Shown one piece after another: positions 27,614-61,464 of a stretch of 64,000 bases of DNA (the first letter of the stretch is position 1; each line of letters starts with the position of its first letter). The notes under the pieces were generated by a model. The model was not told the origin of the DNA. It made no database searches and saw only the letters and a program-made list of their open reading frames with translations. The DNA lies in the NCBI RefSeq assembly GCF_000026545.1, contig NC_011601.1; one strand, given 5' to 3'. Source of the stretch: Escherichia coli O127:H6 str. E2348/69. GTDB taxonomy: Bacteria; Pseudomonadota; Gammaproteobacteria; Enterobacterales; Enterobacteriaceae. The position numbers and the translations under genes are program-made.

Positions 27614-29872
27614 ATGCGCGTCGATGCCATTGCTAAGGTCACCGGGCGGGCACGATATACTGACGATTATGTTATGGCGGGCATGTGTTACGCGAAATAT
27701 GTACGTAGCCCTATCGCACATGGTTATGCTGTAAGTATTAATGATGAACAAGCCAGGAGTTTGCCGGGCGTCCTGGCGATTTTTACCTGGGAAGATGTGC
27801 CAGAAATCCCATTCGCCACGGCAGGGCATGCCTGGACACTTGACGAAAACAAGCGCGATACCGCCGATCGCGCACTGCTAACTCGCCATGTTCGTCATCA
27901 TGGCGACGCCGTTGCCATCGTCGTGGCCCGCGATGAACTCACGGCAGAAAAAGCGGCGCAATTGGTCAGCATTGAGTGGCAAGAATTACCCGTTATCACC
28001 TCGCCAGAAGCGGCGCTGGCAGAAGACGCTGCACCAATCCATAACGGTGGCAATTTACTGAAACAAAGCACGATGTCGACGGGTAATGTCCAACAAACAA
28101 TCGATGCCGCCGACTACCAGGTACAGGGGCACTATCAGACTCCCGTTATTCAACATTGTCATATGGAAAGCGTGACATCGCTGGCATGGATGGAGGATGA
28201 CTCGCGAATTACCATCGTTTCCAGCACCCAGATCCCGCACATTGTTCGCCGCGTGGTTGGTCAGGCGCTGGATATTCCCTGGTCATGCGTACGAGTCATC
28301 AAACCGTTTATCGGTGGCGGTTTTGGTAATAAACAGGATGTACTGGAAGAGCCAATGGCGGCATTCCTGACCAGCAAACTTGGCGGCATTCCGGTGAAAG
28401 TTTCCCTTAGCCGTGAAGAGTGTTTCCTCGCAACCCGTACCCGCCACGCTTTTACTATTGACGGGCAAATGGGCGTGAACCGCGACGGAACATTGAAAGG
28501 TTATAGTCTGGATGTTCTGTCTAACACCGGCGCTTATGCATCTCACGGGCACTCCATTGCTTCTGCTGGGGGGAATAAAGTCGCTTACCTTTATCCTCGT
28601 TGTGCCTACGCTTACAGTTCAAAGACCTGCTATACCAACCTCCCCTCGGCTGGTGCGATGCGTGGTTATGGCGCGCCACAAGTCGTATTTGCCGTTGAGT
28701 CTATGCTTGATGATGCCGCGACAGCGTTAGGTATTGATCCTGTTGAAATTCGTTTACGCAACGCCGCCCGCGAAGGAGATGCTAATCCGCTCACGGGAAA
28801 ACGTATTTACAGCGCAGGGTTGCCGGAGTGTCTTGAAAAAGGCCGGAAAATCTTTGAATGGGAAAAACGCCGTGCAGAGTGCCAGAACCAGCAAGGCAAT
28901 TTACGTCGTGGCGTTGGCGTCGCCTGTTTTAGCTACACCTCTAACACCTGGCCTGTCGGCGTAGAAATAGCAGGCGCGCGCCTGTTGATGAATCAGGATG
29001 GAACCATCAACGTGCAAAGCGGCGCGACGGAAATCGGCCAGGGTGCCGACACCGTGTTCTCGCAAATGGTGGCAGAAACCGTGGGAGTTCCGGTCAGCGA
29101 TGTCCGCGTAATTTCGACACAAGACACCGACGTTACACCATTCGACCCCGGCGCATTTGCCTCACGTCAGAGCTATGTTGCCGCGCCTGCGCTGCGCAGT
29201 GCGGCACTGTTATTAAAAGAGAAAATCATCGCTCACGCCGCAGTCATGCTACATCAGTCAGCGATGAATCTGACCCTGATAAAAGGCCATATCGTGCTGG
29301 TTGAACGACCGGAAGAGCCGTTAATGTCGTTAAAAGATTTGGCGATGGACGCTTTCTACCACCCTGAACGCGGCGGGCAGCTCTCTGCCGAAAGCTCCAT
29401 CAAAACCACCACTAACCCACCGGCGTTTGGCTGTACCTTTGTTGATCTGACGGTCGATATTGCACTGTGTAAAGTAACCATCAACCGCATCCTCAACGTT
29501 CATGATTCGGGCCATATTCTTAATCCGCTGCTGGCAGAAGGTCAGGTACACGGCGGAATGGGGATGGGCATTGGCTGGGCGCTATTTGAAGAGATGATCA
29601 TCGATGCGAAAAGCGGCGTGGTCCGTAACCCCAATCTGCTGGATTACAAAATGCCGACCATGCCGGATCTACCACAACTGGAAAGCGCGTTCGTCGAAAT
29701 CAATGAGCCGCAATCCGCATACGGACATAAGTCACTGGGTGAGCCACCCATAATTCCTGTAGCCGCTGCTATTCGTAACGCGGTGAAGATGGCTACCGGT
29801 GTTGCAATCAATACACTGCCGCTAACGCCAAAACGATTATATGAAGAATTCCATCTGGCAGGATTGATTTGA
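27614..29872 (+). CDS. xdhA: xanthine dehydrogenase, molybdopterin-binding subunit (752 aa)
   Basis: Track ORF 27575..29872 trimmed to Met giving MRVDAIAKVTGRARYTDDY; aldehyde oxidase/xanthine dehydrogenase Mo-binding domain. Confidence 0.93.
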   Translation: MRVDAIAKVTGRARYTDDYVMAGMCYAKYVRSPIAHGYAVSINDEQARSLPGVLAIFTWEDVPEIPFATAGHAWTLDENKRDTADRALLTRHVRHHGDAVAIVVARDELTAEKAAQLVSIEWQELPVITSPEAALAEDAAPIHNGGNLLKQSTMSTGNVQQTIDAADYQVQGHYQTPVIQHCHMESVTSLAWMEDDSRITIVSSTQIPHIVRRVVGQALDIPWSCVRVIKPFIGGGFGNKQDVLEEPMAAFLTSKLGGIPVKVSLSREECFLATRTRHAFTIDGQMGVNRDGTLKGYSLDVLSNTGAYASHGHSIASAGGNKVAYLYPRCAYAYSSKTCYTNLPSAGAMRGYGAPQVVFAVESMLDDAATALGIDPVEIRLRNAAREGDANPLTGKRIYSAGLPECLEKGRKIFEWEKRRAECQNQQGNLRRGVGVACFSYTSNTWPVGVEIAGARLLMNQDGTINVQSGATEIGQGADTVFSQMVAETVGVPVSDVRVISTQDTDVTPFDPGAFASRQSYVAAPALRSAALLLKEKIIAHAAVMLHQSAMNLTLIKGHIVLVERPEEPLMSLKDLAMDAFYHPERGGQLSAESSIKTTTNPPAFGCTFVDLTVDIALCKVTINRILNVHDSGHILNPLLAEGQVHGGMGMGIGWALFEEMIIDAKSGVVRNPNLLDYKMPTMPDLPQLESAFVEINEPQSAYGHKSLGEPPIIPVAAAIRNAVKMATGVAINTLPLTPKRLYEEFHLAGLI

Positions 29873-29882
29873 GGATAACATC

Positions 29883-59580: not shown

Positions 59581-60015
59581 TTGCATCCCTTTCATTTAAT
59601 GAGTTATGTCTTCTCAAATTTCGCGATGCAATAAATGGGCATATATTAGGTAGCATGACCGTTTTAATTATAATTTTGCAACTGAGTTCAAATTATTGCC
59701 CCTCAATCTATGCCGCTTTCATTATTTCAACATTGCCGATCAAAAGAATGCTATCCAGATAAAAACGATTAAATGCGAGAGTGCGACATGCCAGAATGAT
59801 TAATGAAATATCAATATGAGAAAATTACAGATAATTCCATTGTCAGGTTCTCTTCTCATTTTCGTGGTTTAACCACGATTATGTGATTGCCTCCGCAATT
59901 CCTGTCTCTAACTCCCCTTCCTCGCAAAAACTGGCACTCCACGAGCATGTGTTTAGACAGTTTCATGAACATAAACGGTTGCTTTTTACTCTGGCGGGCG
60001 AAAGGAGAAACACTG

Positions 60016-61464
60016 ATGAGCGCCATAGATTCCCAACTTCCCTCATCTTCTGGGCAAGACCGCCCAACTGATGAGGTTGACCGCATATTATCACCAGGAA
60101 AGCTGATCATACTCGGTCTGCAACACGTCCTTGTCATGTACGCAGGTGCAGTCGCTGTTCCTCTTATGATTGGTGACCGACTCGGCCTATCAAAAGAAGC
60201 TATTGCGATGCTCATTAGCTCGGATCTCTTTTGCTGCGGGATCGTCACATTATTGCAATGTATCGGTATCGGCCGCTTTATGGGGATCCGCCTGCCGGTG
60301 ATTATGTCGGTGACCTTTGCTGCTGTAACACCAATGATAGCCATTGGGATGAACCCGGAAATCGGCCTGCTGGGGATATTTGGTGCCACTATCGCCGCGG
60401 GTTTTATCACCACATTATTAGCGCCACTTATCGGTCGCTTGATGCCTTTATTCCCGCCACTGGTTACCGGTGTGGTGATTACTTCTATCGGGCTTAGCAT
60501 CATTCAGGTGGGTATTGACTGGGCCGCCGGAGGTAAAGGGAATCCGCAATATGGTAATCCCGTTTATTTAGGTATCTCCTTTGCCGTCTTAATTTTTATC
60601 TTGCTCATTACTCGCTATGCGAAAGGATTTATGTCCAACGTCGCCGTATTACTGGGGATTGTATTTGGCTTTTTACTTTCGTGGATGATGAATGAAGTCA
60701 ATTTATCCGGGCTACATGATGCTTCATGGTTTGCGATTGTTACGCCGATGTCGTTTGGTATGCCGATTTTCGATCCCGTTTCCATTCTGACCATGACTGC
60801 CGTGTTAATCATCGTGTTTATCGAGTCGATGGGGATGTTCCTGGCACTGGGTGAAATAGTCGGTCGTAAACTCTCTTCACACGATATTATTCGCGGGCTG
60901 CGTGTCGATGGTGTAGGGACAATGATAGGCGGAACGTTTAACAGCTTCCCCCACACGTCATTTTCTCAAAACGTTGGCCTGGTTAGCGTGACGCGCGTTC
61001 ATAGCCGCTGGGTGTGTATTTCTTCGGGAATTATATTAATCCTGTTTGGCATGGTGCCCAAAATGGCGGTGCTGGTCGCCTCCATTCCGCAATTTGTGCT
61101 GGGCGGCGCTGGGCTGGTGATGTTCGGCATGGTACTGGCGACAGGGATTCGAATTCTGTCGCGCTGTAACTACACCACCAACCGTTACAACCTCTATATT
61201 GTGGCGATCAGTCTCGGCGTTGGCATGACTCCGACGCTCTCTCACGATTTCTTTTCTAAGTTACCGGCCGTACTGCAACCGTTGCTGCATAGCGGCATTA
61301 TGCTCGCAACCCTTAGCGCCGTTGTGCTGAACGTCTTCTTTAATGGCTATCAGCATCATGCTGATCTGGTGAAGGAATCCGTCTCTGATAAAGATTTAAA
61401 AGTCAGGACAGTACGTATGTGGCTTCTGATGCGCAAGCTGAAGAAAAATGAGCATGGAGAATAA
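60016..61464 (+). CDS. uacT: uric acid transporter, NCS2/NAT family (482 aa)
   Basis: Track ORF 59887..61464 trimmed to Met giving MSAIDSQLPSSSGQ; AAGGAG RBS upstream. Confidence 0.92.
   Translation: MSAIDSQLPSSSGQDRPTDEVDRILSPGKLIILGLQHVLVMYAGAVAVPLMIGDRLGLSKEAIAMLISSDLFCCGIVTLLQCIGIGRFMGIRLPVIMSVTFAAVTPMIAIGMNPEIGLLGIFGATIAAGFITTLLAPLIGRLMPLFPPLVTGVVITSIGLSIIQVGIDWAAGGKGNPQYGNPVYLGISFAVLIFILLITRYAKGFMSNVAVLLGIVFGFLLSWMMNEVNLSGLHDASWFAIVTPMSFGMPIFDPVSILTMTAVLIIVFIESMGMFLALGEIVGRKLSSHDIIRGLRVDGVGTMIGGTFNSFPHTSFSQNVGLVSVTRVHSRWVCISSGIILILFGMVPKMAVLVASIPQFVLGGAGLVMFGMVLATGIRILSRCNYTTNRYNLYIVAISLGVGMTPTLSHDFFSKLPAVLQPLLHSGIMLATLSAVVLNVFFNGYQHHADLVKESVSDKDLKVRTVRMWLLMRKLKKNEHGE

Follow-up and report, generated by a model that had tools for sequence, protein, structure and literature searches.

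The purine and urate catabolic genes of the enteropathogenic Escherichia coli (EPEC) strain E2348/69 (serotype O127:H6) were analysed in a window of 64,000 nucleotides of its chromosome (NC_011601.1); the window is the whole stretch of DNA under study and all positions given below refer to it. The interval 27614-61464 is very probably (roughly 0.88) a conserved chromosomal supercluster for purine and urate catabolism in which, in this strain, lesions have genetically inactivated the reductive branch of the pathway at steps one and two: a copy of ISEc13, an insertion sequence (IS), splits ygfK, and xdhD carries an in-frame TAG codon. A first-pass annotation of the window had listed the genes as though the block were intact, mentioning neither the two lesions nor the IS, and on this point it has to be revised. 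A 20-kb slice of the interval matched the minus strand of an E2348/69 assembly (NZ_CP059840.2) at 100% identity; its identity to most of the other complete E. coli genomes was 95-99%.

Disruption of ygfK and xdhD

The ygfK gene is cut after codon 228. In a tblastn search with the K-12 protein, residues 1-228 were located at 43150-43834 and residues 226-1032 at 45384-47804, separated by a 1550-bp ISEc13 (43835-45384, minus strand, identified from RefSeq and model NF033590) whose transposase gene (43846-45219) lies antisense to ygfK. The element has the ends CTGTCTCTTGATCAG... and ...GTGTATAAGAGACAG, and a target duplication of 9 bp, CCACCATGC, stands on either side of it (43826-43834 and 45385-45393). 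Translation of the upstream fragment (43150-43834, plus strand) runs into the IS and ends ...LSTMPVS at a stop at 43845. The downstream fragment (45385-47807, plus strand) holds codons 226-1032 with the Fer4_20, Pyr_redox_2 and 4Fe-4S dicluster domains, ahead of which the IS has struck according to a Pfam search of the repaired protein; the N-terminal part that was hit has been modelled as the flavin mononucleotide (FMN) substrate-reduction domain (Li et al. 2025, PMC12507026). With TIGR03315 the two fragments align at positions 1-215 and 215-1012, respectively, yet ISEc13 splits the gene itself and no intact YgfK is encoded.

The second lesion lies in xdhD (49965-52835, plus strand), where a TAG at 51228-51230 stands in place of the CAG of K-12 (Q422*). 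A Pfam search of the repaired XdhD places this residue within MoCoBD_1 (residues 355-590), ahead of MoCoBD_2 (639-893), and the stop removes most of both molybdenum (Mo)-cofactor domains. The gene belongs to the right family for an XdhD-type subunit (TIGR03313), but neither fragment equals the full protein. Both ygfK and xdhD are labelled pseudogenes in E2348/69 by RefSeq, and the antisense ISEc13 in ygfK probably has polar effects on ssnA-ygfM-xdhD as well. Since xdhD provides the first and ygfK the second dedicated step of the reductive branch, E2348/69 is predicted to have lost this branch and to be unable to degrade urate reductively.

That the cluster might nevertheless be intact and functional in E2348/69 could be argued from the 20 of 22 non-regulatory genes which are full-length and 96-100% identical to K-12, and from the conservation of ygeV and of four sigma-54 promoters. 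This is very unlikely given an IS of 1550 bp with a target duplication in one gene and a stop codon within MoCoBD_1 in the other, the pseudogene status of both in RefSeq, and the recurrence of the lesions in independent assemblies, as described in the following section.

Distribution of the lesions among E. coli genomes

The lesions were searched for in a comparison set of 5426 complete E. coli genomes. The left ygfK/ISEc13 junction was present (coverage of at least 80%) in one of the 5426. The exact 61-mer around the xdhD TAG was found in three genomes, and 5169 genomes fell in the 95-99% identity band, where all of the matches listed stood at 98.4%, equivalent to a single mismatch. The three TAG-bearing genomes are CP059840.2, LT827011.1 ("EPEC E2348/69 variety 2") and LT903847.1 ("EPEC1", an artificial construct derived from variety 2). 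The closest other genome belongs to strain 2022H047; it shows 100% identity across 16.2 kb and has an intact ygfK of 3099 nt and an xdhD which is not flagged. Both lesions are accordingly private to strain E2348/69. The xdhD TAG was also considered as a marker of the O127:H6 lineage and was rejected as such, all three genomes being stocks or derivatives of E2348/69.

Sequencing or assembly error was weighed as a source of both lesions, as IS copies are a classic cause of misassembly and a single-base stop codon could be a read error. However, three assemblies from two laboratories agree exactly on the TAG and on the right-hand IS/ygfK junction, and the target duplication is a clean 9 bp at a site which is contiguous in K-12. 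The lesions are not assembly artefacts, since assemblies made in different laboratories share them, and next to no credence can be given to this explanation.

ISEc13 copies and loss of a 22.5-kb segment

ISEc13 was assigned to the IS4 family on the basis of its DDE transposase (NF033590, 514 bits), its terminal inverted repeats, which begin CTGTCTCTT (ends CTGTCTCTTGATCAG... and CTGTCTCTTATACAC...), and the 9-bp target duplications found at both copies in the window. Compared with the known ISEc13 (IS4 family, IS50/Tn5-like ends) the element itself is unremarkable and only its copy number is expanded: E2348/69 has it at approximately 30 places, the median for E. coli genomes being one, and this expansion suggests broader IS-driven gene loss in the strain. 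No publication on E2348/69 together with ISEc13 was found in the literature covered, which did not include the strain's own genome paper.

The second copy (19773-21322, minus strand) is located between araE and kduD, is 100% identical to the ygfK copy and in the same orientation, and has its own 9-bp duplication, CCATGCGAC. The two direct copies bracket 22,512 bp, including half of the purine cluster, and the bracketed segment carries kduDI, yqeFG, tRNA-Gly, actS, xdhABC, ygeV, ygeWXY-hyuA-yqeA, yqeBC, mocA and the 5' part of ygfK. Precisely this segment is missing in the variety 2 stock and its EPEC1 derivative, neither of which was among the 100%-identity matches to a 16.2-kb query taken from it. 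At the junction in these two genomes the IS copies adjoin head to tail, without a single base in between (...AGAGACAG followed directly by CTGTCTCTT...). Homologous recombination would have left a single IS copy, and the junction is therefore not its product; it suggests instead, and this is speculation, that the transposase cut at the inner ends and that the ends were then joined. The locus has probably gone through a nonsense mutation and the insertion of an IS, in either order, and then through loss of the inter-IS segment in one stock.

Gene content and pathway

In RefSeq the gene order is xdhA, xdhB, xdhC, ygeV, ygeW, dpaL (ygeX), ygeY, hyuA, arcC (yqeA), yqeB, yqeC, mocA, ygfK, ssnA, ygfM, xdhD, xanQ, guaD, ghxQ, ygfS, ygfT and uacT. 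When 23 proteins of K-12 MG1655 were compared with the window by tblastn, all were recovered full-length and collinear at 96-100% identity, the first match starting at 27614 (the K-12 start of xdhA) and the last reaching 61461, with the uacT stop codon ending at 61464. The genes named in the first-pass annotation are thus all present, in the order given there and within exactly the boundaries it had set. It had proposed domain searches as a check, and NCBIfam models confirmed 21 of the 23 named genes above curated cutoffs, at equivalog or family level. Equivalog models were exceeded by XdhA, XdhB, XdhC, YgeW, YgeX, YgeY (for which the model is a hypothetical equivalog), HyuA, carbamate kinase, YqeB, YqeC, MocA, SsnA, YgfM, guanine deaminase and YgfT; for XanQ and UacT the models are at family level. 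GhxQ had no NCBIfam match and YgfS fell below every curated NCBIfam cutoff; they were assigned by 99.8% identity to K-12 GhxQ and 98% identity to K-12 YgfS, respectively. Apart from ygfK and xdhD, the genes are complete open reading frames at least as long as in K-12.

Going by their K-12 annotations and by what is established about them, XdhABC, GuaD, XanQ, GhxQ and UacT supply the pathway with substrate. Urate would be taken up by the urate:H+ symporter UacT (60016-61464), xanthine by the xanthine:H+ symporter XanQ (53000-54400; both found by tblastn and NCBIfam family model), and guanine and hypoxanthine by the transporter GhxQ (55770-57137). Purines would then be funnelled to xanthine and urate by guanine deaminase, GuaD (54415-55734; tblastn, NCBIfam), and by the xanthine dehydrogenase XdhABC, which consists of a Mo subunit (xdhA, 27575-29872; tblastn, NF007426, 1485 bits), a flavin adenine dinucleotide (FAD) subunit (xdhB, 29883-30761) and a 2Fe-2S subunit (xdhC, 30758-31237; both from RefSeq, tblastn and NCBIfam). 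All seven genes are on the plus strand. Some start codons in RefSeq differ from those of K-12: xdhA (27575 as against 27614) is 13 codons longer in E2348/69, with a start so placed that it leaves just 56 bp to the sigma-54 promoter at 27503, and ygeW (33531 as against 33534) and guaD (54415 as against 54418) are each one codon shorter.

The reductive 2,8-dioxopurine pathway has been reconstituted biochemically in vitro by Li et al. (2025; bioRxiv 10.1101/2025.05.19.654654, PMC12507026). In that work purified XdhD-YgfM reduced urate to 2,8-dioxopurine (isoxanthine) with NADH, YgfK and SsnA converted isoxanthine to ureidomethylhydantoin, HyuA opened the hydantoin to 2,3-diureidopropionate, YgeW with phosphate took off the 2-ureido group to give albizziin, with YqeA acting as carbamate kinase, and YgeY and YgeX yielded pyruvate (PMC12507026). 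Applied to the genes of the window, all on the plus strand, XdhD and its FAD subunit YgfM (49189-49968, intact; TIGR03312, 486 bits) would turn urate into isoxanthine, YgfK would dearomatise it, and the amidohydrolase SsnA (47810-49138, intact, 442 aa) would cleave the pyrimidine ring of the reduced isoxanthine to give ureidomethylhydantoin, which the hydantoinase HyuA (37297-38682; tblastn, NCBIfam) would open next. SsnA, a pathway marker in Li et al., scored 735 bits with TIGR03314 (cutoff 455) and 708 bits with NF005540. The 2-ureido group would be removed through phosphorolysis by the knotted carbamoyltransferase YgeW (33531-34721; NF005538, 825 bits) together with the carbamate kinase YqeA (ArcC; 38730-39662; tblastn, NCBIfam), the 3-ureido group of albizziin by the M20 hydrolase YgeY (36033-37244; TIGR03526, 722 bits), and 2,3-diaminopropionate would be converted to pyruvate and ammonia by its ammonia-lyase YgeX (DpaL; 34779-35975; tblastn, NCBIfam). 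From the carbamate-kinase reaction, ATP would be gained at the YgeW/YqeA step. HyuA, YgeW, YqeA, YgeY and YgeX are all intact and above their NCBIfam cutoffs.

Maturation of the Mo/selenium cofactor would fall to the Mo cofactor cytidylyltransferase MocA (42250-42828, plus strand; TIGR03310, 216 bits), the selenium-dependent Mo-cofactor maturation protein YqeB (39703-41328, minus strand; TIGR03309, 417 bits) and the selenium cofactor biosynthesis protein YqeC (41376-42146, minus strand; TIGR03172, 236 bits). Of the selenium-cofactor trait, for which YqeB, YqeC and SelD are expected, yqeB and yqeC are present and intact in the window, while selD lies outside it; selenium dependence of the pathway through this trait has been reported in preprints of the Dodd laboratory (bioRxiv 10.1101/2022.07.24.501321; 10.1101/2025.04.24.650524). 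YgfT (57661-59580, minus strand; NF009451, 1505 bits), a formate-dependent uric acid utilization oxidoreductase, and the 4Fe-4S ferredoxin-like YgfS (57173-57661, minus strand) would tie the pathway to formate-derived electrons; according to the Dodd-lab preprints, which cite Iwadate and Kato (2019), ygfT, aegA and ygeV are implicated in formate-dependent urate degradation.

RefSeq and TIGRFAM carry the name "putative selenate reductase subunit YgfK", from which ygfK-ygfM-xdhD might be taken for a selenate reductase instead of urate enzymes. This is extremely unlikely: the purified XdhD-YgfM and YgfK with SsnA act on urate and isoxanthine (PMC12507026), ygfK is induced by urate and ygfK mutants are impaired in urate-to-acetate conversion (Dodd-lab preprints), and the selenium link is accounted for by the selenium-dependent Mo cofactor.

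The interpretation of the block as a purine and urate cluster with Mo hydroxylases and a sigma-54 activator, made in the first-pass annotation, is borne out by the models, the literature and the domains of YgeV. The annotation was also right not to regard the cluster as undescribed, as anaerobic urate degradation through these genes has been published (bioRxiv 10.1101/2022.07.24.501321; 10.1101/2025.04.24.650524; PMC12507026). Its remark that several members are only partly characterised still applies to YgeV, YqeB/YqeC and YgfS/YgfT and no longer to XdhD-YgfM, YgfK, SsnA, HyuA, YgeW, YgeY and YgeX, which were characterised in vitro in 2025.

Conservation of the locus

The annotation had called the block accessory-like and had suggested cluster conservation as a check. 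The block was found at a coverage of at least 80% in at least 5143 of the 5426 complete genomes, and some of it in 5329-5350, nearly always at a single chromosomal place. The GC content of the cluster is approximately 0.51 throughout, like that of its flanks, a composition profile of the window gave no island signature, and neither an integrase annotation nor flanking direct repeats were found at the block, the sole mobile DNA being the strain-private IS. Judged by its distribution (95-98% of complete E. coli) and composition, the block is near-core and not a horizontally acquired island, contrary to the accessory status proposed for it. A horizontally acquired genomic island would find some support in the adjoining tRNA-Gly, which in K-12 neighbours a remnant of ETT2 (E. 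coli type III secretion system 2), and in the YgeV relatives: among the matches listed, full-length relatives number at least about eight, are scarce in other Enterobacteriaceae and include, in the best matches, Firmicutes with similar neighbourhoods, which fits an ancient transfer. Such an island is nonetheless improbable, the genomes that carry the block at this locus numbering at least 5143 and as many as 5350, and its GC content being indistinguishable from that of its flanks.

The same 23 genes are found in the same order and orientation in the xdhA-uacT region of K-12 (b2866-b2888), with 96-100% protein and approximately 97% DNA identity and with the same four sigma-54 promoters, but in E2348/69 ygfK is disrupted by ISEc13 and xdhD by Q422*. 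Two further differences were noted. Between yqeA and yqeB, K-12 has approximately 152 additional bp, made up of repetitive extragenic palindromic (REP)-type palindromes with a duplicated terminator hairpin flanking them, whereas E2348/69 (39663-39702) has a single hairpin. The ETT2 remnant that K-12 has beyond tRNA-Gly (glyU), with ygeN-ygeQ and IS2, is missing at this locus in E2348/69, where yqeG directly follows the tRNA (26216-26330).

Clostridial uricolytic clusters share ygeW, ygfK, ssnA, ygeY, dpaL, yqeB/yqeC and xdh genes with E. coli, next to a YgeV-like activator (36-39% identity). Their gene order, that of the uric acid clusters of C. difficile and C. sporogenes included, is unlike that of E. 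coli, and C. difficile has UacX in place of YgfK and UacY in place of YgeW/YqeA (PMC12507026). In contrast to the clostridia, E. coli has XdhABC, GuaD, three transporters and YgfST in addition, all in one 34-kb block.

Sigma-54 promoters and candidate YgeV sites

Sigma-54 promoters were located solely with the site sequences published from chromatin immunoprecipitation sequencing (ChIP-seq) of K-12, in which sites were reported upstream of xdhA, ygeW, ygfK and ygfT (Bonocora et al. 2015). PygeW (ygeWXY-hyuA-yqeA; CTGGCACACTTATTGTT, 33424-33440, plus strand) and PygfK (ygfK-ssnA-ygfM-xdhD; GTGGTGCGATTGTTGCT, 43061-43077, plus strand) match their K-12 sites with 0 mismatches, and PxdhA (xdhABC; CTGGCGTAATTCTTGCC, 27503-27519, plus strand) and PygfT (ygfT-ygfS; TATGCCCATTTATTGCA, 59627-59643, minus strand) with 1 mismatch each. 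A scan of the window with a generic sigma-54 consensus gave just intragenic 9/11 matches of no evident meaning.

YgeV (31277-33055, minus strand; NCBIfam, Pfam) has the organisation of a sigma-54 enhancer-binding protein, with a sigma-54 interaction AAA+ domain (PF00158, residues 272-439, E = 2e-70) and AAA lid, the motifs GESGTGKE and GAFTGA in its translation, an HTH_8 domain at 548-587, a PAS domain at 162-206 and a weak GAF match at 65-126 (E = 0.07). The PRECISE-1K YgeV iModulon comprises the xdhA, ygeW, ygfK and ygfT operons together with uacT, and ygfT expression is lowered in a ygeV mutant. All four sigma-54 promoters would accordingly share one enhancer-binding protein, YgeV, in the proposed scheme.

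Candidate binding sites were found through words shared among the four promoter upstream regions. The 12-mer CTCATATTGATA occurs in exactly three copies in the window, at 27394 (PxdhA), 33211 (PygeW) and 59809 (PygfT), and a palindromic variant of it, TTATCATAATGATAA, lies upstream of PygfK (42880). With up to one mismatch allowed the 12-mer had 6 matches in the window against 0.24 expected, and the dyad TATCA-N3-TGAKA occurred at 4 distinct sites against 0.21 expected, all within the cluster and one of them intragenic (ygeX). At all four promoters dyads stand 98-201 bp upstream of the -24 elements, the xdhA site deviating at its last base. The candidate YgeV dyads are two upstream of PxdhA, at 27371 (TTATCACATTGAT) and at 27394-27405 (the 12-mer itself); TATCAATATGAGA at 33211-33223, whose start precedes that of the PygeW element by 213 bp; the perfect palindrome TATCATAATGATA at 42880-42892, whose start precedes that of the PygfK element by 181 bp; and TATCAATATGAGA again at 59809-59821, in the divergent ygfT-uacT region.

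Similar sites were found in other organisms. Enterobacter sp. Bisph1 has a YgeV 69% identical to that of E. coli and the same divergent ygeV/ygeWXY-hyuA layout, and its dyad occupies the most strongly conserved island in an intergenic region that has diverged elsewhere, 213 bp from the sigma-54 promoter as in E. coli. In Sedimentibacter and Clostridium, perfect TATCA-N3-TGATA dyads were found 145-284 bp upstream of sigma-54 promoters beside YgeV-like genes, which adjoin ygeX-ygeW-ygeY-ygfK or xdhABC and permease genes. The clostridial clusters and E. coli have in common TTATCA-N3-TGATAA dyads that lie upstream of sigma-54 promoters. The motif has been predicted as the enhancer of a clostridial activator named DioR, with a predicted regulon of dpaL, ygeW-ygfK-ssnA-ygeY, yqeB/yqeC and xdhABC (Nie et al. 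2019, PMC6615313). Of the 19 positions of one site predicted there for DioR, ATTTATCATAATGATAAGG in C. botulinum, 18 agree with the PygfK site of E. coli, CTTTATCATAATGATAAGG. The dyad motif is not new in kind, given this clostridial prediction. From this agreement YgeV is probably the DioR orthologue and would bind the dyads.

The stretch from the dyad to the ygeW sigma-54 promoter contains a CRP-like site, TGTGATCAACCCCACA (33366-33381), which is conserved in Enterobacter sp. Bisph1 in the form GTGATCCTTATCACA; a native Crp site in the ygeV-ygeW intergenic region is mentioned by Li et al. (PMC12507026). An Rfam scan detected no riboswitch or small RNA within the cluster and only OmrA/OmrB and tRNA-Gly outside it. 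The OmrA/OmrB tandem (13403-13490 and 13606-13687, minus strand; RF00079, 97 and 86 bits), located between aas and galR, is ordinary.

Discussion

The cluster is already known and biochemically largely solved, and its gene content adds little that is new. What is added to it is modest: the pseudogenisation private to this strain, the YgeV-DioR enhancer dyad and the IS-bracketed, deletion-prone segment. Taken as a whole, the wider proposition that YgeV is the DioR orthologue acting on TTATCA-N3-TGATAA dyads at four promoters, in one purine/urate-responsive sigma-54 regulon extending from Firmicutes to E. coli, and that E2348/69 is a natural null in stepwise IS-driven decay, has slightly better than even odds.

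A number of points tell against the reading of the interval as a purine and urate supercluster under YgeV whose reductive branch is dead in E2348/69. The loss of function is deduced from sequence, and no phenotype data for E2348/69 were found in the literature in either direction. Reinitiation at a GTG at 51243 could produce a C-terminal XdhD fragment, and the ATG at 45390 could serve as the start of a YgfK fragment, given outward transcription from the IS; activity of XdhD or YgfK as split proteins is unlikely. The part played by YgfT and YgfS in the pathway is known genetically only. On the regulatory side, a perfect palindromic dyad, TATCATCTTGATA, lies inside the ygeX coding sequence (35055-35067), as an internal regulatory site or by chance, and the PygfK palindrome resembles a Fur box too. 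In the literature on the 12-mer motif and on YgeV binding no description for E. coli was found, and we infer the binding of YgeV to the dyads.

Some product names in RefSeq, among them "selenate reductase" and "D-phenylhydantoinase", have not caught up with the biochemistry of 2025. The common enhancer dyad offers a direct way to test what YgeV binds and senses, which is where the system is least understood. E2348/69 is the reference EPEC strain and has been used in infection and volunteer studies; if it is urate-negative, results on gut purines obtained with it would be unrepresentative of E. coli generally.

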